From a virus (taxonomy: Duplodnaviria; Caudoviricetes), in IMG/VR virus record IMGVR_UViG_3300044709_000184, positions 1-64,000 of that record: a stretch of 64,000 nt of DNA; one strand, written 5' to 3'. Position numbers and translations under genes: made by a program. The notes beneath the pieces were generated by a model. That model ran no database searches and had not been told where the DNA came from. It was given only the letters and a program-made list of their open reading frames with translations. Of the stretch, positions 176 through 46,055 are shown in pieces. Within the stretch, counting starts at the first letter, position 1, and each line of letters starts with the position of its first letter.

Positions 176-541
176 ATGCCAACGCTCCCCCGTCACCTCA
201 CCGCCCTGCCCGGCCGCCCGGTCGTGGTCGCGGTCTCGGGCGCCCGCCCGCGCCCGCGCCCGGGCGCGCGTGAGCGTACAGGCGCGTGCGCAGGCCCACA
301 ACCGGGTGCCCGCGGGTGCCTGTCCGCGTGGCCCGCGCGGGTGCCGGCACACCGGTCTGGTGGTAGCGGCACGGCTAGCGGGGTAGCGGCACCGCTACCG
401 GCACCGCTACCGGCTGACCAGCACATACGGCCTCGGGTAGCGGGTAGCGCCCCGGCCGCCGCAGGGCGTGGGGGGCCAGTTTCCGGCCTGCGCCGGCCCG
501 CCCAGGCCGCTACCCGCTACCCGATGGGGGGCCGGTCGTGA
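176..541 (+). CDS. Low-complexity Pro/Ala/Arg ORF overlapping DNA repeats
   Basis: AAGGGA upstream; GTGA overlap with next gene; may be only partly coding. Confidence 0.35.
   Translation: MPTLPRHLTALPGRPVVVAVSGARPRPRPGARERTGACAGPQPGARGCLSAWPARVPAHRSGGSGTASGVAAPLPAPLPADQHIRPRVAGSAPAAAGRGGPVSGLRRPAQAATRYPMGGRS
362..521. repeat. Cluster of GGTAGCGG/CCGCTACC 8-mers (candidate TraB recognition/clt locus)
   Basis: Perfect copies at 362, 382, 392, 404, 436, 507, 514; near copies at about 374 and 443; function inferred. Confidence 0.6.
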
Positions 542-2673
542 CCACCCAGCCCATCGACGACGACGACATCGACACCGCGGGCGACGGCGCCCGGGTCTAC
601 CAGCTGCACACGGGGGTGGAGCTGGTCTCCCGCGGCAAGCTGCTGGACACCCACTACGAGTTCGACCTGGACGAGCCGCCCCTGGCCTCGACCGCACCGG
701 TGTACGTCGACGTCACCAGCCACGTCGATGACCTGCGCCCGATCATCCCGGCGGCGTTGCGGGGCCCGAACCTGGTGCCGACCGTCAAACGGGCCGCCGG
801 CCGTACCGGGCACCGCTTCGGCTACCACGCCGTCCGGTCGCCCGCCTATGTGGTGTTGTCGGGCTGGTGGGCGATCGTCGGGGTGTTCCGGCTGACCGGC
901 CGGCAGCTGCGCTGGTGGTGGCTGTCCGAGCAGCACCAGCTCCGGCAGGAGGCCGCCAACGCCAACGACCCGGCGACGTGGCTCAAGTTGCACCGCGAGG
1001 CCCGCAACGTGCGCCGGTGGCGGGGCATCGTGTTGTGCGCCGAGCTGGTCGCGCTCACCGTCGGGGCGGTGCTGATCGAGGTGCTGGCGCCCCACTGGGC
1101 GTGGGGCGTTGTTGCGGCCGTTGCGGTGCCGCTGCTGGCCCGCCTCGGCCGCCCCGACGGCCGACCGATCGTGTCCGCCGCCGTGGTCACCAGCCGGTAC
1201 CGCAAGCTGACCGCCGACATCGTGCTGCGGGCCTACTACGCGGCCGGCCTGGGCCACCCCGACAAGCCGGAACAGCAGATCATGTTCGGGGCGCCCATGG
1301 CCCGCGACGGCGAAGGTTCCCGGGTCACGGTCGACCTGCCGTACGGGAAGGGCTTCACCGACGCCGTCCAGCGCCGCGACCGCATCGCCTCCGGGCTCGA
1401 CGTGGCCCTGGCCCAGGTGTACATCCACCCCGACCCCACCTCTCACCGCCGCCACGTGTTGTGGGTCGCCGACCGTGACCCCCTGGCCATCTCCGCCGGC
1501 CGGACCCCGTTGCTGCGGCTCCGCCCGACCGACATCTGGGAGCCGGCCCCCCTCGGCCTGGACGAGCGGGGCCGGGCCGTGGCGGTGCCGATGCTGTGGC
1601 AGTCGATCCTGGTCGGGGCCGTACCCCGGGCCGGGAAGACGTTCAGCGCCCGACTGCTGGGCCTGTACGCGGCCCTGGACCCGTACGTGAAGCTGACCGT
1701 GTTCGACGGCAAGGGCTCTCCCGACTGGCGGTCGTTCCGGCTGGTCGCCGACCGGTGCGGCTTCGGCCTGGCCCTGTCCCGCGACGGCGACCCGGTCGAG
1801 CTGTTCCTCGAAGCGCTGCGTGAGATCAAGGGCGACGTGGAGCGCCGGTACCGGCTGCTGTCCGAGCTGCCGCCCGAGGTGTGCCCGGAAGGCAAGCTGA
1901 CCCGCGAGATCGCCCACACCCCCCGGTTCGGGATGCCGGTCCGGCTGGTCATCGTCGACGAGGTGCAGGAGTACTTCGACGTGGGCGGCGACCAGGGCAA
2001 GGAGATCGCCGGGCTGCTGGTCTACCTGGTGAAGGTGGCCCCCGGCGCCGGGGTGATCGTGCTCGACGCGACCCAGAAACCGTCCGGGGTCGGCACCGGC
2101 CAGGTCGCCAACGCGTTCACCACGTTCCGCGACCAGCACCAGATCCGGTTTGCGTTGCGGGTCGGGTCGTGGCAGGTGTCCGACGTGATCCTGGGCGCCG
2201 GCGCCTACAGCGAAGGTCTCGACGCCTCAACCCTCATGCCGACCTACAAGGGGGTCGGCATCCTGCGGGGGGCGTCGGACGCCTCGCCCACCGTGCGGAC
2301 CTACCTCGCCGACGGCCAGGACGCCGAACGGATCCTCACCGCGGCCAGGGTGATGCGGCAGCGGGCCGGGACCTTGTCCGGCATGGCCGCCGGTGAAGAC
2401 GTGACCCGCCAGACCCGCGACGTGCTGGCCGATGTGCGGTCGGTGTTCTACGCCGGTGAGGCCTTCGTCAGCTGGCAGCAGCTGGCCAGCCGGCTCGTCG
2501 GGCAGTACCCGGAGTTCTACGAGGCGCTGAGCCCGGAAGCCATCTCAGCCCAGGCCCGGGCCCTGGGCGTCCCGTCAGTCAACGGCAAGGAGAGGGGCGC
2601 CGTGCTCAAGGGCGCGAAGCTCGACGCGGTGGTCGGCGCGATCACCGCCCGCCAGATCGGGGCCGGGTCGTGA
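538..2673 (+). CDS. FtsK/SpoIIIE-family conjugal DNA translocase (TraB-like)
   Basis: N-terminal TM segments, Walker A GAVPRAGKT, Walker B VIVDE, ATQKP motif, C-terminal wHTH-like region. Confidence 0.88.
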   Translation: MTTQPIDDDDIDTAGDGARVYQLHTGVELVSRGKLLDTHYEFDLDEPPLASTAPVYVDVTSHVDDLRPIIPAALRGPNLVPTVKRAAGRTGHRFGYHAVRSPAYVVLSGWWAIVGVFRLTGRQLRWWWLSEQHQLRQEAANANDPATWLKLHREARNVRRWRGIVLCAELVALTVGAVLIEVLAPHWAWGVVAAVAVPLLARLGRPDGRPIVSAAVVTSRYRKLTADIVLRAYYAAGLGHPDKPEQQIMFGAPMARDGEGSRVTVDLPYGKGFTDAVQRRDRIASGLDVALAQVYIHPDPTSHRRHVLWVADRDPLAISAGRTPLLRLRPTDIWEPAPLGLDERGRAVAVPMLWQSILVGAVPRAGKTFSARLLGLYAALDPYVKLTVFDGKGSPDWRSFRLVADRCGFGLALSRDGDPVELFLEALREIKGDVERRYRLLSELPPEVCPEGKLTREIAHTPRFGMPVRLVIVDEVQEYFDVGGDQGKEIAGLLVYLVKVAPGAGVIVLDATQKPSGVGTGQVANAFTTFRDQHQIRFALRVGSWQVSDVILGAGAYSEGLDASTLMPTYKGVGILRGASDASPTVRTYLADGQDAERILTAARVMRQRAGTLSGMAAGEDVTRQTRDVLADVRSVFYAGEAFVSWQQLASRLVGQYPEFYEALSPEAISAQARALGVPSVNGKERGAVLKGAKLDAVVGAITARQIGAGS

Positions 2674-2891
2674 GCGCCGCCCCGGGCCGCCCCCAACGCG
2701 CCGACTACCTGGCGTCGGTCGCCGACACCGACGGCCACGCCGCCACCTGCGGCACCTGCCGGGCCGGTGGGGTGTGCGGCACCGCCGACCTGCTCATGGA
2801 ACGCGAGTACCGCGACCACGAAGACCTACGCACCGTCGACCCCCTGGCGGCCCGTGCCGTCGACCGGGCCACCTGGCCCACGGAAGGATGA
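2670..2891 (+). CDS. Small Cys/His protein
   Basis: HxxxCxxC...C; overlaps both neighbours. Confidence 0.65.
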   Translation: MSAAPGRPQRADYLASVADTDGHAATCGTCRAGGVCGTADLLMEREYRDHEDLRTVDPLAARAVDRATWPTEG

Positions 2892-4165
2892 CCATGCCCA
2901 CGCCCACGACTGTCCGAGGCCACGTCGGCCGTTTGATCCACCTGTACTGGCGGGAGGCCCTTGTCGTCCTCGCCCTGACCGTCACCGCCTGCGTGCCGCT
3001 GGCCATCCCGCAGTCCCGCCGGTACGCCCTGGGCTGGATGCGGTGCGGCCGTACCCGCCGCCTCATCCGGGCCGGCCTGGCCGCCACCAAGATGACCAAC
3101 ACGGCGGGCCAGGTGCCGCGGGTGCGGTCGGTGAAGGCCACCCCGGTCGGGGAGAGGGTGGAGCTGCGCACCCGGGCCGGCCATTCGGCTGAGCTGCTGT
3201 CGCTGCGTATGGAGGAGCTGCGGGCGGCGTTGAAGGCCCGCACGGTGCGCATCGACCGTGACCCCGAAGCCTCCAACAAGATCACGATGGAGGTGGTGCG
3301 GCGTGACCCGCTGGCCGCCGTCGCGATGGTGGCGTGGCTCGACCAGGACAAGCCGACCCTGTCGCTGTGGGACCCGATGCACCTGGGCACCACTGAGCTG
3401 GGCGTCGACCGTCGGCTCAGCCTGGTCGGCCGGGGCATCGTCGCCGGCGGCATCATGGACTCCGGCAAGTCGTCCCTGCTGAACCTGGTTGTAGCGACCG
3501 CGGCCAAGTCGCCTGCCGCGCTGTACCTGATCGACCCGCAGGGTGTGCAGTTCGGGCCGTGGCGGGCGCGGGCCACCATGTACGCCCAGAAGGACCCGGA
3601 CGAGGCTCTGGCGGTGTTGGAGGCCGTACAGGCCGAGATCGACGAGCGGCTGGCCGCGATGGAGGCCCTGCCGGGTGTGGTCCGCAAACTCACCCCCGCC
3701 GTGGCCGACCAGCTGGGCCTGCACCCGTTCGTGTTGGCGATCGACGAGCTGGCCTACCACACCGCCACCGTCGGGTCGGGCGCCCAGCGGGACCGGTTCG
3801 CGTCGACCGCCCGTGACGTGGTCTCACGCGGCCGGGCCGCCGGCCTCATCCCGGTCATGGCCACCCAGCGCCCCACCCAGGACGTCGTACCCCGGGCCCT
3901 CACCGACCTGTTCGGCATCCGGGTCGCGTTCAAAACCGCCAACGACGCCAACAGCGACATCCTCCTCGGCACCGGCCTGGCCGCCCGCGGCTACAACGCC
4001 GCCGACATCGACCTCGAATCCCGGGGCGTGGGGCTGCTGCTGGGCCCCAGCGGAATACCGGAACGCATCAAGGTCGCATGGGTGTCTGACGACGTCATCG
4101 ACGGTCTGGCCAGCACCACCGTCGCCTTCAAGCCCCGCCGCGCCAGCGTTGCCGCGGCGGCCTAA
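2888..4165 (+). CDS. Second FtsK/SpoIIIE-family ATPase (short TraB-like)
   Basis: One TM, Walker A GIMDSGKS, Walker B LAIDE, ATQRP; ends just after the ATPase domain. Confidence 0.85.
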   Translation: MTMPTPTTVRGHVGRLIHLYWREALVVLALTVTACVPLAIPQSRRYALGWMRCGRTRRLIRAGLAATKMTNTAGQVPRVRSVKATPVGERVELRTRAGHSAELLSLRMEELRAALKARTVRIDRDPEASNKITMEVVRRDPLAAVAMVAWLDQDKPTLSLWDPMHLGTTELGVDRRLSLVGRGIVAGGIMDSGKSSLLNLVVATAAKSPAALYLIDPQGVQFGPWRARATMYAQKDPDEALAVLEAVQAEIDERLAAMEALPGVVRKLTPAVADQLGLHPFVLAIDELAYHTATVGSGAQRDRFASTARDVVSRGRAAGLIPVMATQRPTQDVVPRALTDLFGIRVAFKTANDANSDILLGTGLAARGYNAADIDLESRGVGLLLGPSGIPERIKVAWVSDDVIDGLASTTVAFKPRRASVAAAA

Positions 4166-10110: not shown

Positions 10111-10542
10111 TCAGTGCGCCGTCAGCCGCCGGGCGGCGGCGTGGCTGTGGAACACCTCCATGGCGCAGTGCCAGCACACATACCGGCTATGGGTGCGGTC
10201 GTAGTGCTGGATCGCCGTCCCGCCGCCCAGGTTCGGGCTGTGCACGGCACACCGGGCCCGCATGGTGGGGTCGGCTCGGGGGTGGTCCTCGTGGCTTGCG
10301 CCGCACCCGACCCACCGGTACAGGCACAGCCGCTCCCACTGGTCGTCGATGACCTTGAACGACGTCGAGTCGACCTGGTCGACCAGCGCGACGATGTTGT
10401 CGTCGCCGGCCCGGGCGTGCTCGGCTGCCTCTTCGACCGTCGGGTACAGCGTGACGGTCTGGTGTGCGCTACCGGCGACGGTCAGCCAGTCGGGGCCGGG
10501 GATGAACTTGCCCGACACCCAGCCCCGCGTCTCACCGGTCAC
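10111..10542 (-). CDS. Hypothetical Cys/His-rich protein
   Basis: GTGA-coupled. Confidence 0.6.
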   Translation of the reverse strand: MTGETRGWVSGKFIPGPDWLTVAGSAHQTVTLYPTVEEAAEHARAGDDNIVALVDQVDSTSFKVIDDQWERLCLYRWVGCGASHEDHPRADPTMRARCAVHSPNLGGGTAIQHYDRTHSRYVCWHCAMEVFHSHAAARRLTAH

Positions 10543-10904
10543 CGGTCTGCCCCGTCCAGCTCGGCCAGGCGCAGGTCGGCGAGGATAGCCGCCTGCCGGG
10601 CCCATGACCACTCGCACTGGTCGCCGTCGTCGGTCTGGTGCCCGACCGGGTAGCCCTCGGCCCGCAGGTCGATGCCGCAGCGGGGGCAGTGCTCGGGGCA
10701 TTTGTCGGACAGCTTGAGCAGGCTCTGGCTGATCCACTGGCCGCCCTTGGTGTTGTTCGGGTCGGTGGGCCAGACCCGAACCAGCGGGTCGGTGTCGTCG
10801 TCGCGGATGGGGTCGGTCTCGGTCACCTCGTACGTGCGGCCGGTGACCGGCCGGATCGTGAACACGACCACGTCGCCCGGGGCGAGGTAGCGCTGGTCAG
10901 ACAT
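10539..10904 (-). CDS. Hypothetical protein with CxxC
   Basis: AAGGAG RBS. Confidence 0.7.
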   Translation of the reverse strand: MSDQRYLAPGDVVVFTIRPVTGRTYEVTETDPIRDDDTDPLVRVWPTDPNNTKGGQWISQSLLKLSDKCPEHCPRCGIDLRAEGYPVGHQTDDGDQCEWSWARQAAILADLRLAELDGADR

Positions 10905-11019
10905 TGGTTGCTCCTTCGGGTCGGGTGTCTCCTACCGTAACAGGTACCGGCAGGAGACACAACCGTGTGGCCACCGCACCGCACCGGCCCATCACCCTGG
11001 GCCGGTGCAGCACGGCTAG

Positions 11020-11346
11020 TCAGACGGAGGTGGTGTGGTGGTCGTTCCGGGCCGCGAGCGCTTCGACCACGTGGGAGCAGCACGGCGTGTAGGCCGAGCT
11101 GGCAACCGGTGTGCGCAGCGTCCGCATCAGGTCATGCCCCCGGCCGACCTTGATCCGGTCGGCGGCGGCCACGACTCTCTCCTTCACCACAGCGGGTAGC
11201 TCAGGGCGCGTGGCGTAGGCCAGCACGTCCTCTTCCGCCTGCCGCAGCTGCTCGAGGACGTCGATCCAGTCCTTCCGCGGCGGGTCGTACACGAGCGTCG
11301 GCGGCGTCGGCTTGCGGGTCAGCCACCTCGTGATCGTTTGGAGCAT
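11020..11346 (-). CDS. Hypothetical protein
   Basis: GGGAG RBS. Confidence 0.65.
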   Translation of the reverse strand: MLQTITRWLTRKPTPPTLVYDPPRKDWIDVLEQLRQAEEDVLAYATRPELPAVVKERVVAAADRIKVGRGHDLMRTLRTPVASSAYTPCCSHVVEALAARNDHHTTSV

Positions 11347-11445
11347 GTCGGTTCTCCCATCCGACTGCCCAGATGCCCGTCTGGGTCGGTTCTGGCCTGA
11401 CGGCCACGGCTCCGGCTGGTACGGCGACCAGCCGGGCCGGAGCGG

Positions 11446-11931
11446 TCAGGCGGACTTGCGGGCGACGGGGTTGATGCTGAGGCCCATGACGGCCTCGAGG
11501 TGCGGGTTGGTCTCGCCGGCCATGTACCACGTCTGGAGCCGGTTGAGCCGCTCAGCGGTGACGGCCGGCTGGGCCGAGTCGGCGTACCAGGGGGCGATCG
11601 CGGCGGCGAGCTGGTGCGGCGCTACCACTACGACCCGGCCGGTGGCTTCCTCGACGATCCGGAGCCGGCCGCGGGCGGCCCGCACACGGAACCAGTCGAT
11701 GGCGATGTTGGCCAGCAGTGAGATCGCCCAGGCGCCGCCGCAGGCGTACAGCGTGAACCGGATGTTCTCGGCGGTGGCGCCGAGGAATGCGGCGGCCAGG
11801 GCGGCGCCCACTGACCAGGCCAGGAACATGCCGGCGGCCAGGCTGACCGCGGTGAACAGCCAGACCTTCATCCACCTTTCCGGTGTCCGGTAGCCGGCGG
11901 CCGAGGCGGTGGGCTTGGTGCAGGTGACCAC
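11446..11931 (-). CDS. Membrane protein (2-3 TM)
   Basis: AAGGAGG RBS just 3' of tRNA-like element 1. Confidence 0.7.
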   Translation of the reverse strand: MVTCTKPTASAAGYRTPERWMKVWLFTAVSLAAGMFLAWSVGAALAAAFLGATAENIRFTLYACGGAWAISLLANIAIDWFRVRAARGRLRIVEEATGRVVVVAPHQLAAAIAPWYADSAQPAVTAERLNRLQTWYMAGETNPHLEAVMGLSINPVARKSA

Positions 11932-11967
11932 GATGGGGCCTCCTTCGGTTGGGGGGGTTCGGGGTCG

Positions 11968-12047
11968 CCTCCCTGCCAGGGCTCGAACCTGGACCTGCCG
12001 GGGCCCGTCGGCTGACCGGTCGCGCTACCACGTTGCGCTACAGGGAA
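11968..12047 (-). ncRNA. tRNA-like element 1 with aberrant 14-nt anticodon loop
   Basis: TTCCCTG-TA-GCGC-AACGTGGTA-GCGC-G-ACCGG-TCAGCCGACGGGCC-CCGGC-AGGT-CCAGG-TTCGAGC-CCTGG-CAGGGAG-G; acceptor, D and T arms intact; no encoded CCA. Confidence 0.8.
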
Positions 12048-12085
12048 GATCGGGGCCCGGCCCAGGGGTTCGGGCCGGGCCTTCG

Positions 12086-12367
12086 TCATGGATCTAGTTG
12101 GGGTGACTCGGGGGCGCGGTGACCGCACTCTCTCGCGGGCACGCCGCAGGAGCCGCAGTAGTCGTCCCAGCCGTACCGGTTGCGGCACAGCGACCGCAGT
12201 CCGTCGGGGGTTTCGGCAGTGAGCCGGTTCGGCAGGCGCAGCGCCTCGTCGTGGCTGGCCTCGACCGGTGCCGGGACCGCGTTCCAGCGGGGTCCGGGTG
12301 TGCTGTACCAGACGTGCCAGCCGGGTAGCTGCCCGGCGAGCCGGTCAATCCACGTGCTGGTCTTCAA
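12086..12367 (-). CDS. Hypothetical protein with C-terminal CxxC...CxH
   Basis: TTGA-coupled. Confidence 0.6.
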   Translation of the reverse strand: MKTSTWIDRLAGQLPGWHVWYSTPGPRWNAVPAPVEASHDEALRLPNRLTAETPDGLRSLCRNRYGWDDYCGSCGVPARECGHRAPESPQLDP

Positions 12368-12768
12368 TGGGGGGTGCTCCCTTCTGGCGGGCTGTCGGGC
12401 AGGTAGTACGGCCACGCCTCGGGGCCCCACTCGTCGCCGCAGCCGGGGCATTGGAAGATGTCGGCCGTGCCGGTGTCCAGCTCGGTGCCGCAGCTGATGC
12501 AGTGCGGGTCCAGGACGGCCCGGGCGGCGGCCCGTTTGGCGCCGGCCACGGTGCCGCTGTGACCCTGCTCGTGGATCCGGTAGCCCGGCTCGGGGCCGAA
12601 CTCCGGGCCCCGCAGGGCCCACCGCCAGCCGCCCTTCGCCTTGTCCCGGCTCACGGCCAGATAGACCACTCCCGGCCGGCCCGACTCGCCGACGACATTC
12701 CGGGCCAGGGTCATCGACCAGTACGAAAGCGCCCCGGTCGCCGGGATGCGTTCCCAGACACGGGTCAT
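12364..12768 (-). CDS. Zinc-ribbon protein
   Basis: CISC...CPGC; ATGA-coupled. Confidence 0.65.
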   Translation of the reverse strand: MTRVWERIPATGALSYWSMTLARNVVGESGRPGVVYLAVSRDKAKGGWRWALRGPEFGPEPGYRIHEQGHSGTVAGAKRAAARAVLDPHCISCGTELDTGTADIFQCPGCGDEWGPEAWPYYLPDSPPEGSTPH

Positions 12769-12977
12769 GACGCACCCCCGGCGGGGGTGTCGGCGGCGAG
12801 CAGCTTGTGGAGCCACACCTGCTCACGGATGTACCGCAGCGTGGCACCGCCGGTGCGGGTGACGAACTCGCCGCAGCTGCACTCGACGTCGTAGCCCCAG
12901 GTGCCGCGCATCGACGCCTGACGGCGGATCCGCTCACGACCGGCGTACACGTACCACGTCATTCGATGGGTGACCAC
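12765..12977 (-). CDS. Small Cys/His protein
   Basis: AAGGAGG RBS just 3' of tRNA-like element 2; CSCG...H. Confidence 0.7.
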   Translation of the reverse strand: MVTHRMTWYVYAGRERIRRQASMRGTWGYDVECSCGEFVTRTGGATLRYIREQVWLHKLLAADTPAGGAS

Positions 12978-13001
12978 AGTGGACCTCCTTCCGTTGGGTC
13001 G

Positions 13002-13073
13002 TCTCCCTGCCCGGGGTCGAACCGGGACCTGCCGACCAGGGGGCCGGCTGCGCTGCCGTTGCGCTACAGGAAG
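13002..13073 (-). ncRNA. tRNA-like element 2 with aberrant anticodon arm
   Basis: CTTCCTG-TA-GCGC-AACGGCA-GCGC-A-GCCGG-CCCCCTGG-TCGGC-AGGT-CCCGG-TTCGACC-CCGGG-CAGGGAG-A; 8-nt loop with no U33, can zip to a 7-bp stem with CCCT loop. Confidence 0.82.
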
Positions 13074-13158
13074 GTGGAGGGGCGGGAACCCCGCTAGAGT
13101 TCCCGCCCCTCGTTCACCGCACCGGCTAGCGGGACCGGTCGGTCCGACTAGCCGAGGC

Positions 13159-13716
13159 TCACGGGGTGGCCCCCGTCGCCGCGAGCTGCTTGGCCTGCTC
13201 GGCCCGCACCCGCTTGCGGTACTGCATCGTCAGAGCTGCCTTGCCGGCGGCGTCCTTCTTGTCGTAGCCCTTGGACTTGCGCCAGGCCTTCTCGGCCTCC
13301 GTGACCACCCACGCCTCTTTCGGGGCGGTGGCGACTGGCTTGGGTGCGACGGACTGACGGCCCGCCTTGGTGATGTGGTGCTCCAGCAGCATGAAGACGC
13401 CGACGGTGAGTACGCCGAACCCCTTCTCGCCCAGGTTGTGACCGGCGTACACGTTGGCCGCCAGGCTGAGAAGGCCGCCTGCCATCAGCAGGCGGAAGCC
13501 GGACCGTCGGAAGCCCGGCAGGAAGTCGGTGTGCATCGACAGCTTGCCGACCACGGCAACGAAGTCGATGAGGCCGACCGCGGCGAAGCGGTACCAGCCC
13601 GACAGGCCGAGCATGCCGGCCGTGTCCACGATGTGCGATGCGCTGACGAACCCGGCGAGCACGAGCAGTCCAGAGACGCCCACCGTGATGATCCGCATAC
13701 GCGTGACGCTGTTCAT
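13159..13716 (-). CDS. DUF2637/Spd-like multi-pass membrane protein
   Basis: S.SHI...ID...SLAANV pattern, four TM, basic tail; GAGGAGG RBS. Confidence 0.7.
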   Translation of the reverse strand: MNSVTRMRIITVGVSGLLVLAGFVSASHIVDTAGMLGLSGWYRFAAVGLIDFVAVVGKLSMHTDFLPGFRRSGFRLLMAGGLLSLAANVYAGHNLGEKGFGVLTVGVFMLLEHHITKAGRQSVAPKPVATAPKEAWVVTEAEKAWRKSKGYDKKDAAGKAALTMQYRKRVRAEQAKQLAATGATP

Positions 13717-13729
13717 GGCCCCTCCTCAG

Positions 13730-14308
13730 GGGTCGAAGTTTGGGTGACCGTTTGGCCGCCCCCGCGGCGGCCCCCCGGTCTCGGGGGTTTGGCCCGGGCG
13801 CTGGCGGAGCTTTCGCTCGACGCCGGCTGCCTCACGGGTTCGGGAGTTGTGGTCCTGCCACTTCAGAGGGGCTGAGGGGGGCGGGCCTGCCGTGCCGGCC
13901 GCTGTCTGGGCGAGGGCACCCGATCGCCGCTTGACCACGTTCGGACTTACACCGCCTCGTGGCGGCCGAAGCCGCTCCTATGTCTGCCTAGCTCTTGGCG
14001 CGCTGCCAGCCGTTGGCTGGTCGTTGGCTTCCCTCATCGCCTCAGCCCCTTTGGAGGGGCAGGGGGTTGATCTTTGCGCTCTGTCCGTTCCGCTCGATCT
14101 TCACTTCGCGTTCGGTGGTCCTCGGTCGGCTAGCTCGTCCGGTGGGTCTAGGTTGCAGGCCTTGCAACCGATCTGCGGGCGGGCTCGGGCAGGTTTCCCG
14201 GTGGCCTCTCGTCTCGTACCTAGCGGCTTGGTGCTCGTCGCGGGTGCGGGTGGGGGTCTTGCTTCCCCGGCGCCTCTGTGGAGTTTTCAATCTTCGATTT
14301 CCCCCGTT
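13730..14308 (-). ncRNA. Candidate large structured RNA or 5' leader (about 580-590 nt)
   Basis: No credible ORF; GAAA and cUUCGg tetraloop hairpins on the minus strand; 24-nt long-range helix 13854-13877/14040-14063; directly after a promoter. Confidence 0.6.
14276..14290 (-). promoter_or_regulatory. boxA-like antitermination signal
   Basis: TTGAAAACTCCACAG resembles actinobacterial rrn leader boxA (TTTGAGAACTCAA.AG). Confidence 0.5.
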
Positions 14309-14343
14309 ACGTAAAGTGTAACACATGTCGGGTAGTGATACGA
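14304..14343 (-). promoter_or_regulatory. Promoter (TCGTAT-N17-TACACT) with TTAC-N7-GTAA palindrome
   Basis: 29/38 identical to 21678-21715. Confidence 0.7.
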
Positions 14344-14375
14344 CTGGGGTAGGGGGATCCCTGCCCCTTCCGGGA

Positions 14376-14391
14376 TGTGATCCTGGTCACA
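14376..14391. promoter_or_regulatory. CRP/GlxR-type binding site
   Basis: Perfect TGTGA-N6-TCACA in the divergent intergenic region. Confidence 0.6.
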
Positions 14392-14524
14392 TTTGGGGGT
14401 TTGGCTTGTCGGTTGACGGTCAGCGTGCCCGCGCCCGCCCGCGCTAGGGTCTGCCCCAGACAAGGCAGGCCCCGGGCGGCATCCGCGCCCAGCCCGGGGC
14501 CCCGATCAGGACGGAGCCCTGACC

Positions 14525-15100
14525 ATGTACCCGACCGTAACCCCAACCCCCCGCCGTAGCCGTGTTCCGCTGGTCCTGGGCATCATCGGCGGCGCCCTGT
14601 TCCTGCTGTGCGGCGGCCTGGTCCTCATCGTCGCCCTGGCCGCGAAGAGCGTCCCCAGCACCGCGACCAGCGCCGGCGGCAACGGCGCGGCCGGCCCCGC
14701 CGTGGCAGGTCTGGGCCAGCCGGCCCGTGACGGCAAGTTCGAGTTCACCGTGACAAAGGTCCAATGTGGTGTGCCCCAGGTCGGCACCGACCTGTTCAGC
14801 CGCAAGGCCCAGGGCCAGTACTGCCTCGTGTCCGTCACGGTCGCCAACATCGGCGGCGAGCCCCGCACCCTGGCCGCCGCCAACCAGCACGCCTACAACG
14901 CCGCCGGCGCAACCTACGACGCCGACTCGGCCGCCTCGATCTACCTCAACGACGCCGGGCGGGTCCTGTACGAGCCGATCAATCCCGGCAACCGGGTCAA
15001 CGGCACCCTGGTCTTCGACATCCCGAAAGACGGCAAGCTGGTCCGGCTCGAGCTGCACGACTCGCCGCTGTCGGGCGGAGTCGCGGTCACCCTGGGCTAG
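14525..15100 (+). CDS. DUF4352-type membrane-anchored protein (Mpr-like; possible superinfection exclusion)
   Basis: TM; RDGKFEFTV, KAQGQY, INPGN, LVFDIP, LELHDS motifs. Confidence 0.8.
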   Translation: MYPTVTPTPRRSRVPLVLGIIGGALFLLCGGLVLIVALAAKSVPSTATSAGGNGAAGPAVAGLGQPARDGKFEFTVTKVQCGVPQVGTDLFSRKAQGQYCLVSVTVANIGGEPRTLAAANQHAYNAAGATYDADSAASIYLNDAGRVLYEPINPGNRVNGTLVFDIPKDGKLVRLELHDSPLSGGVAVTLG

Positions 15101-45873: not shown

Positions 45874-46055
45874 GGCTGGTTGTAGTTCCGGCCCCGCCGC
45901 CACCGCCACCGCAGCGACACCAGCATCAGCAGGGCGCCGACCACGACGATGCCTACCCCGATCCAGGCCAACCCGGCCATGCTCAGCTTGATCCCCGCCA
46001 CGGTCAGCACTCCTGCGCCAGTGACGGGAAGCGTCCCTCCAGAACCGCCGTTCAC
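45870..46055 (-). CDS. 61-aa membrane microprotein with LPVTG motif
   Basis: GAGGAG RBS; LPVTG, hydrophobic stretch, basic tail. Confidence 0.65.
   Translation of the reverse strand: MNGGSGGTLPVTGAGVLTVAGIKLSMAGLAWIGVGIVVVGALLMLVSLRWRWRRGRNYNQP

Follow-up and report, generated by a model that had tools for sequence, protein, structure and literature searches.

Mitochondrial tRNA punctuation is the wider idea that contains the t-elements of plants. In bacteria, tRNAs and mRNAs are co-transcribed from the tufB and secG-leuU operons, where the tRNA fold is removed by tRNA-processing enzymes, altering the stability of the flanking mRNA, and RNase P is said, from work of Li and Altman in 2003, to cleave inside operon mRNAs. 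The plant mitochondrial t-elements, tRNA-shaped and non-decoding, lie at cistron borders of polycistronic RNA, and were proposed to direct the RNase P and RNase Z cleavages that make mRNA 5′ and 3′ ends (Forner 2007, PMC1920247). Here we analyse two tRNA-shaped elements of an uncultured soil siphovirus, tRNA-like element 1 (TLE1, 11965–12047, minus strand) and tRNA-like element 2 (TLE2, 12999–13073, minus strand), found in the first 64,000 nucleotides (nt) of IMG/VR record IMGVR_UViG_3300044709_000184, a stretch hereafter called the window. Like t-elements, both place a tRNA-like fold right at the boundary between two cistrons of a predicted polycistronic unit. They differ from them in belonging to a bacteriophage of a probable actinomycete host, in forming a complete cloverleaf with D-arm and anticodon stem, and in being framed by an upstream hairpin and a downstream Shine-Dalgarno (SD) sequence. 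The bacterial co-transcripts share with them a tRNA fold inside an mRNA operon, its removal being a proposal in the phage case, but consist of a working tRNA or of an unrelated RNase P site, whereas the phage elements lost the decoding loop and kept the rest. We give a probability of about one half to the reading that they are exapted tRNAs serving as cutting marks for RNase P and RNase Z, as plant t-elements would.

ARAGORN reported only two genes in the window, both as ‘tRNA-???’ and on the minus strand (12047..11967 and 13073..13001). Such an undetermined call had been expected by the original prediction, made from the letters of the window only, which proposed two paralogous tRNA-shaped RNAs at this place. 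Paralogous they are: TLE1 (83 nt, including N73-CGA) and TLE2 (75 nt, counted likewise) show 86% column-by-column identity, each is conserved as an orthologue in a related phage, and the covariance model R1 gives them 80.3 and 88 bits, respectively (E ~1e-14). Minimum free energy (MFE) folding yields a cloverleaf for both, and did so in 8 of 8 copies tested. The acceptor stems have 7 base pairs (bp; TTCCCTG/CAGGGAG and CTTCCTG/CAGGGAG), with a U·G wobble at 1:72 in one copy and at 3:70 in the other. T8-A9, a GCGC/GCGC D-stem, GG in the D-loop and an AGGT variable loop are present in both, and the T-arms, CCAGG-TTCGAGC-CCTGG and CCCGG-TTCGACC-CCGGG, show a compensatory difference, A-U against C-G. 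The discriminator (G or A) is followed by CGACCC and not by CCA. All structural details that had been claimed, including the shifted wobble and the N-CGA end, are found, and they read on the minus strand. The same cannot be said of the ‘destroyed anticodon arm’: a 5-bp stem is present and covaries, and the loop alone is non-canonical. In TLE1 this arm is extended, with a 5-bp stem containing one A·C mismatch and 14 nt that fold as a 3-bp helix with a tetraloop. TLE2 has a GCCGG/TCGGC stem and an 8-nt loop, CCCCCTGG; MFE folding lengthens the stem to 7 bp and leaves 4 nt in the loop. Neither copy in the window was matched by the Rfam tRNA model (RF00005), at the gathering score (29 bits) or at E≤10, and a search of the window with Rfam at gathering score and E≤10 gave nothing meaningful.

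Relatives were gathered by a 3′-half pattern in a metagenome collection, by R1, and from one Logan contig. The resulting family comprises 10 distinct full copies, plus several identical ones, all from one clade of rhizosphere phages. It includes the orthologues of TLE1 and TLE2 carried, in syntenic position, by a 103.5-kb IMG/VR relative (G002), whose capsid protein is 79% identical. Covariation was tested on a model-based alignment (A4) of 9 copies. In the acceptor, D and T stems, all 144 cells of 144 form standard pairs; three pairs have changed on both sides (6:67 from U-A to C-G, 51:63 from A-U to C-G, and 52:62 from G-C to C-G), and two further pairs show wobble changes. None of 500 shuffles matched the observed pairing or covariation score, and slid-partner controls paired at 37–53%. 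The T-loop motif TTCGA is invariant, with positions 59–60 taking five forms (GC, GT, CC, GG, TT), as in real tRNAs; G18G19 in the D-loop is kept in 8/9 copies, and so is U8. Insertions and deletions occur across the family in loops only. The anticodon stem, 5 bp long and G+C-rich, is found in nearly every copy, with an A·C or A·G mismatch at 27:43 in two TLE1-type copies, and it varies with covariation (ACCGG/CCGGT, ACCGG/CTGGT, GCCGG/TCGGC, GCCGG/CCGGC, CCGGC/GCCGG, TCGGC/GCCGG). These data support the view, already put forward by the original prediction, that the elements are tRNA-shaped RNAs under structural selection.

Two copies, the TLE2 of G002 and L020b, have diverged widely, with compensatory changes in acceptor and T-stem. 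As this occurred in spite of anticodon loops of 6 and 3 nt, the body was maintained once decoding had been lost. This bears on the possibility that the elements are tRNA pseudogenes, functionless relics in decay whose conservation reflects the shallow divergence of the clade. The clade is indeed shallow, loop lengths have changed by homopolymer slips and insertions, as decay would give, and the window copies fail the Rfam tRNA model. However, every stem substitution has kept pairing, the three double changes included, stems are free of insertions and deletions, TTCGA stands unchanged beside saturated positions 59–60, and the TLE2 of G002, about 20 positions away from its orthologue, has the best fold of all copies (z = −3.25). 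A conserved elbow with a variable anticodon arm, which had been forecast for homologues, came out as predicted and also argues against plain decay. We regard relics as quite unlikely.

The anticodon loops vary freely: ACC (3 nt), CCCAG (5 nt), ACACAC (6 nt), CCCCTGG or CCCCCAG (7 nt), CCCCCTGG (8 nt), and the 14-nt insert with its own small hairpin. U33 is present in no loop of the family, and folding narrows most loops to 3–6 nt. The lengths of 14 and 8 nt announced for the window were right, but across the family the loops are not wholly ‘unrelated’, a C-run or CAG being common to the CCCC(C)TGG, CCCCCAG, CCCAG and YCAG... loops. A 7-nt TLE2 allele, CCCCTGG, with one C fewer in the C-run, is carried by six contigs (L021, L024, L025, L031, L043, L118) versus one with 8 nt, and one of the six, L021, is 99.35% identical to the window. 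The 8-nt loop of the window may belong to a rare allele, or a homopolymer error may have produced it. Compared with a canonical tRNA, the elements have the cloverleaf with 7-bp acceptor, a D-arm with G18G19 and a T-arm of the T54-Psi55-C56-R57-A58 type, and lack a 7-nt loop with U33 and unpaired 32/38.

Could some copies be working, if odd, tRNAs? The 7-nt alleles would then read CCU (Arg) or CCC (Gly), the loop changes would serve to escape anticodon nucleases, and the copy with 8 nt would decode four bases at a time. L021 and L118 (CCCCTGG) and the TLE1 of G002 (CCCCCAG) score 46.7–55.3 bits with the Rfam tRNA model, above its gathering score, the last of these is called tRNA-Gly(CCC) by ARAGORN, and among TLE2 copies the 7-nt form prevails. 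On the other hand, all copies have C33 for U33, plus G38, CCCCTGG can close by C32-G38 and C33-G37 pairs, and orthologues at these loci carry loops of 3, 5, 6 and 14 nt. Arginyl-tRNA synthetase uses A20 as an identity element, and glycyl-tRNA synthetase U73 or G1-C72; these are missing from the element bodies. AGG is also a scarce Arg codon, at only 5.6% of the total. A frameshift-suppressor tRNA does not fit either, since CCCCCTGG has C33, the common allele is of 7 nt, and orthologues have 6 and 3 nt. Working tRNAs in the family are therefore a faint prospect, and decoding by the two window copies is very unlikely. The earlier statement that the elements are unlikely to decode is supported, and very probably they do not, with the reservation that the boundary to an ‘odd tRNA’ is less sharp than it had seemed, because some alleles and orthologues with 7-nt loops pass the Rfam tRNA model. 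The nuclease-evading phage tRNAs (van den Berg 2023, PMC10264068) are likewise actinophage tRNA genes with anticodon loops off the host consensus, but they keep a 7-nt loop and decode, whereas loops among orthologues of the elements range from 3 to 14 nt and have no U33.

A G+C-rich hairpin with a 10-bp stem (12054–12081, minus strand) ends 6 nt before TLE1, and another of about 13–16 bp (13077–13111, minus strand), conserved in G002 and L020, ends 3 nt before TLE2; neither has a U tract, and equivalent hairpins without U tract precede all family members. Downstream, TLE1 is followed by a C/A-rich leader (11932–11964, minus strand) with GAAGGAGG at 11946–11939 and a GTG start at 11931, and TLE2 by a short one (12978–12998, minus strand) with GAAGGAGG at 12991–12984 and a GTG start at 12977. 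This places GAAGGAGG 18 nt (TLE1) and 7 nt (TLE2) past the CGA, and the AAGGAGG ribosome-binding site (RBS) 19 and 8 nt past it; both the strong hairpin and the nearby RBS had been noticed beforehand. GAAGGAGG occurs three times in the whole 102-kb genome, two of them at these elements. The genes after both elements open with an identical GTGGTCACC start, and the proteins that they encode are unrelated and not paralogues. In every copy of the family the order is hairpin, 2–8 nt, element, N73-CGACCC, C/A-rich leader and AAGGAG, with CGACCC invariant across all copies and the layout fixed across at least seven different gene contexts. In the recovered contigs, the gene after an element encodes the 161-amino-acid (aa) or the 70-aa protein found in the window, a 96-aa protein (G002), or a homologue of the 108-aa (L042) or 121-aa (L020) protein of the window. 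Both elements are intergenic and on the same strand as the genes, as they are in all related contexts. No sigma-70-like promoter was found in 10400–14600, and hairpin and element leave no room between them (3–6 nt), which points to co-transcription of each element with its upstream gene.

Because this arrangement of hairpin, element, CGACCC, leader and RBS is invariant, it favours a processing signal among the roles that the original prediction had offered (processing signal, decoy or ligand). What RNase P, RNase Z and the CCA-adding enzyme read in a tRNA is the elbow together with the acceptor/T minihelix, not the anticodon. These are the very parts conserved in the elements, so that a punctuation mark resembling a t-element is the best explanation. 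According to this proposal, a phage tRNA gene would be the ancestor of both elements and would have been exapted as a cis-acting RNA signal, transcribed on the minus strand within a polycistronic operon whose genes are small and accessory. The RNA would fold into the full tRNA L-shape, with acceptor/T minihelix, intact D/T elbow and closed anticodon stem. Host RNase P would cut at the 5′ end of the element, leaving the upstream mRNA to end in a protective hairpin, and the 3′ maturation route of CCA-less tRNA genes (RNase Z, then the CCA-adding enzyme) would cut after the discriminator. The downstream mRNA, once freed, would start with an unstructured C/A-rich leader and a near-perfect SD sequence. 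The operon message would in this way be split into separately stable and translatable units, and the excised RNA of 70–80 nt would be non-decoding. In large actinomycete genomes, N73-C-(not C) is likewise the reading of tRNA genes that lack CCA, so the trailer of the elements resembles that of an ordinary substrate for RNase Z (and CCA addition).

Several points weigh against such a cutting mark. The hairpins could be real terminators, in which case the elements would be made by read-through only, and a tight hairpin 2–6 nt upstream may hinder the binding of the leader by RNase P. Elements are present at only two junctions of the operon; the other junctions have plain hairpins, so punctuation is not general. 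Single-copy MFE z-scores are mostly weak in the G+C-rich background. The family is moreover limited to one shallow clade with flanks 80–99% identical, its covariation stems from few independent events, and sequences may outscore shuffles through relatedness, even if they have no structure.

Rather than a by-product of cutting, the excised element could be the product itself, a stable non-decoding tRNA look-alike acting in trans. It could serve as decoy or sponge against host proteins that bind tRNA or against defence nucleases that target it, or else be a ligand for tRNA-modifying or tRNA-sensing enzymes. Its place in the operon would then be a mere means of expression. Structural conservation applies equally to this case, the full L-shape including the anticodon stem has been kept although a minihelix would suffice for processing, and phage tRNAs are already known as counter-defence tools (PMC10264068; see also PMC11464382). 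However, most known defences that target tRNA act on the anticodon loop, the hypervariable part of the elements, and the invariant CGACCC trailer, the hairpin and the spacing of the RBS are left unexplained. Searches of the element-adjacent proteins with Pfam and PHROG gave no informative match and identified no tRNA-related enzyme or defence gene beside the elements. On balance a product acting in trans is unlikely.

Another candidate is a translational switch acting in cis, in which the pyrimidine-rich 5′ acceptor strand (CUCCCUG or CUUCCUG) would mimic an anti-SD sequence and pair either with the 3′ strand of the acceptor or with the downstream SD, folding thus gating translation. This is what the MFE fold of one 149-nt context looks like: in L042 (10063–10167), UUCUCCUUC, made of the leader and the 5′ acceptor strand, pairs over 9 bp with the RBS GAAGGAGAA and replaces the acceptor stem. 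A CCUUCC/GGAAGG pairing is possible at TLE2 as well. In the window context of TLE2, though, the cloverleaf wins and the SD stays open (z = −3.41), complementarity is weak at TLE1 and at the TLE2 of G002, and the D and T tertiary residues would have no explanation. We therefore consider the switch highly improbable, and retain the cutting mark as the preferred reading.

The elements were also compared with other known RNAs of this shape, and are not members of any Rfam family tested. The mascRNA/menRNA family (RF01684) has a tRNA-like fold that does not decode and that RNase P and RNase Z cut out of a longer RNA; it is eukaryotic, and the elements score 17.6 bits (E = 2.1) against a gathering score of 42.5, hence they are non-members. 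Bacillus cereus tRNA-Other is described as a non-translating tRNA-like gene with a biological effect (PMC3399842), but its place is in the chromosome, next to a genomic island, and it does not form a module repeated between cistrons. No transfer-messenger RNA was found in the window's record, G001 or G002 (aragorn -m). For a Y RNA/YrlA module, in which a Ro-binding stem built from the 5′ and 3′ ends replaces the anticodon arm, there was no Rfam match, and the ends of the elements sit in a normal acceptor stem. tRNA-like structures in phages have been mentioned in general terms (PMC10690425), and our literature search yielded no account of a tRNA body that is conserved, does not decode and is used between phage genes. 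Separate mRNAs made from one transcript by tRNA punctuation have been described for organelles and a few bacterial operons; no phage paper was found. If host tRNA-processing enzymes do cut here, the phage would have turned a tRNA gene into RNA punctuation, and ‘tRNA-???’ annotations in phages may be regulatory parts instead of errors or dead genes. The hairpin, tRNA body and leader would then form a compact, portable insulator for actinomycete expression design, and selection on the recognition surface of RNase P and RNase Z alone would offer a natural map of what these enzymes need.

The segment between TLE2 and TLE1 proved exchangeable. It holds three genes in the window's record (G000) and in L021, one unrelated gene in G002, another unrelated one in L020, and genes for 73-aa and 227-aa proteins in the Logan contig. 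The slot is empty in L024, L025, L031 and L043, where a body of TLE2 type continues, from within the CGACCC that both elements share, as the trailer of TLE1; the flanks of L024 and L025 are up to 98–99% identical to G000. Given four different gene sets, or none, in the slot of near-identical phages, recombination at the element repeats is real, with one deletion event known that has its junction in CGACCC. The elements might accordingly be kept as DNA, that is as direct repeats bounding an exchangeable slot, and used as sites of homologous or site-specific recombination for swapping or deleting cassettes. Such a role is improbable as the reason for their conservation: recombination needs identity, and leaves the compensatory pairs, the tRNA tertiary residues and the strand-specific G·U pairs unexplained. 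In addition, Pfam and PHROG searches identified no recombinase gene beside the elements, repeat-mediated deletion is expected of any duplicated sequence, and genes also vary downstream of TLE1, where a second repeat is absent. We regard recombination as a by-product or a second role. A double role can be imagined, and is improbable, in which the element as RNA would provide, through processing, the ‘start’ of an independent mRNA, in effect a promoter-less moron, and as DNA would be a joint for swapping or dropping cassettes between phages. It would then be a tRNA-derived counterpart of integron attC, to be set beside the fact that no recombinase was recognised among the neighbours and that the junction in CGACCC comes from one known event.

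Two other DNA sites were considered. An attP core was rejected, the whole cloverleaf being present and not its 3′ part alone. A T-arm resembling GACCCGGA of the TraB clt site exists in one copy only and was taken as coincidence. Elsewhere in these phages a start context, GGAGAACCGAC(C)ATG, is shared before different genes (L020 1716–1735; window 11357–11344, minus strand; L042 10160–10176), and in L020 it is fused as ATGATG to a homologue of the gene for the 121-aa protein of the window. It seems that deletions here remove entire genes, with both ends exactly at start codons.

The genes around the elements are small and all on the minus strand. A 161-aa predicted membrane protein (11446–11931) is translated from the RBS after TLE1; it has 6 homologues, none with a Pfam domain, and a search for related loci with this protein found none. 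Between the elements lies a cassette of three genes (12086–12977), in frames indicated by G+C content at third codon positions (GC3), for proteins of 70 aa (12977–12765), 134 aa (12768–12364) and 93 aa (12367–12086). The 134-aa protein has paired CxxC motifs and weak, sub-threshold Pfam matches to HVO_2753_ZBP and Prok-RING_1, which are small zinc-finger families. Upstream of TLE2, a 185-aa predicted membrane protein (13159–13716) is encoded, whose transcript would run into the hairpin and TLE2; it had no Pfam match, and a gene in the same position of a related contig gave a weak match to DUF2637. A second small hairpin is seen in the sequence near TLE2 (13145–13132, minus strand). Upstream of the 185-aa gene, 13717–14520 is a long stretch without any open reading frame of convincing GC3 bias.

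The complete record, of which the window is the first 64 kb, has 101,924 bp and 71% G+C, and is estimated to be 94% complete. Genes for a DnaB-like helicase, a RecT-like protein, a tape measure protein, tail proteins and a phrog_777 major head protein are present, along with two for FtsK/SpoIIIE-like proteins. An FtsK/SpoIIIE-like (TraB-like) gene pair in the window (538–4165, plus strand) beside a full siphovirus virion module in one genome is uncommon for a phage. Searches of cultured phages with megablast and blastn gave no match. By capsid protein the nearest cultured phage is Actinoplanes phage phiAsp2 (54% identity), and with no cultured phage closer the host is probably a high-G+C actinomycete. 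A close relative, G001 (IMGVR_UViG_3300025936_000031; capsid 98% identical), has a tRNA-Gly(UCC) that is canonical throughout, its CCA encoded and its loop reading CTTCCAG, at 45928–46001 (minus strand; 1501–1574 of locus L068), so genuine tRNAs coexist in this phage group. It comes directly after a G+C-rich stretch able to form a hairpin, in a region without counterpart in G000. Beyond the window, ARAGORN called a 92-nt ‘tRNA-Glu(ctc)’ at 82446–82537 (minus strand) of G000, which by its length and sequence looks like a false positive in G+C-rich DNA.

Outside the clade, searches were negative. Exact 3′-half patterns found only G002 in IMG/VR, and in GTDB genome contigs all that the 3′-half pattern hit was unrelated, for example tRNA-Lys of Bacteroidales or coding DNA. 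The 5′-half pattern gave 100 stretches in IMG/VR, of which 80 loci were examined and proved to be either ordinary tRNAs or matches by chance, none of them called tRNA-???, with R1 scores of at most 63.5 bits versus 66–90 for the family. R1 found nothing in phiAsp2 and five more distant capsid relatives, and BLAST of TLE2 against 301 Actinomycetota genomes (including the unpublished G091 and G235) returned short chance matches only. The nearest real tRNAs on R1 are actinomycete tRNA-Arg(UCU/CCU) and tRNA-Asn(GUU), at 52–55 bits, and a phage tRNA-Gln at 63.5 bits. In TLE2, the flanks of the anticodon stem are like actinobacterial tRNA-Asn, and the CCU loop core and A73 like tRNA-Arg(CCU); with its likeness split in this way, we name no ancestor tRNA. 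Among the metagenome and GTDB loci retrieved, a Bacteroidales-type tRNA-Lys(CUU) with a C1-G72 acceptor (CTCTCCG/CGGGGAG) and no encoded CCA was found in L032, L034–L036, L045, L046, L058, L060 and L062–L065. Copies of its 3′ half adjoin terminators in L022, L029, L038 and L044, and are probably att-site duplicates of integrated elements.

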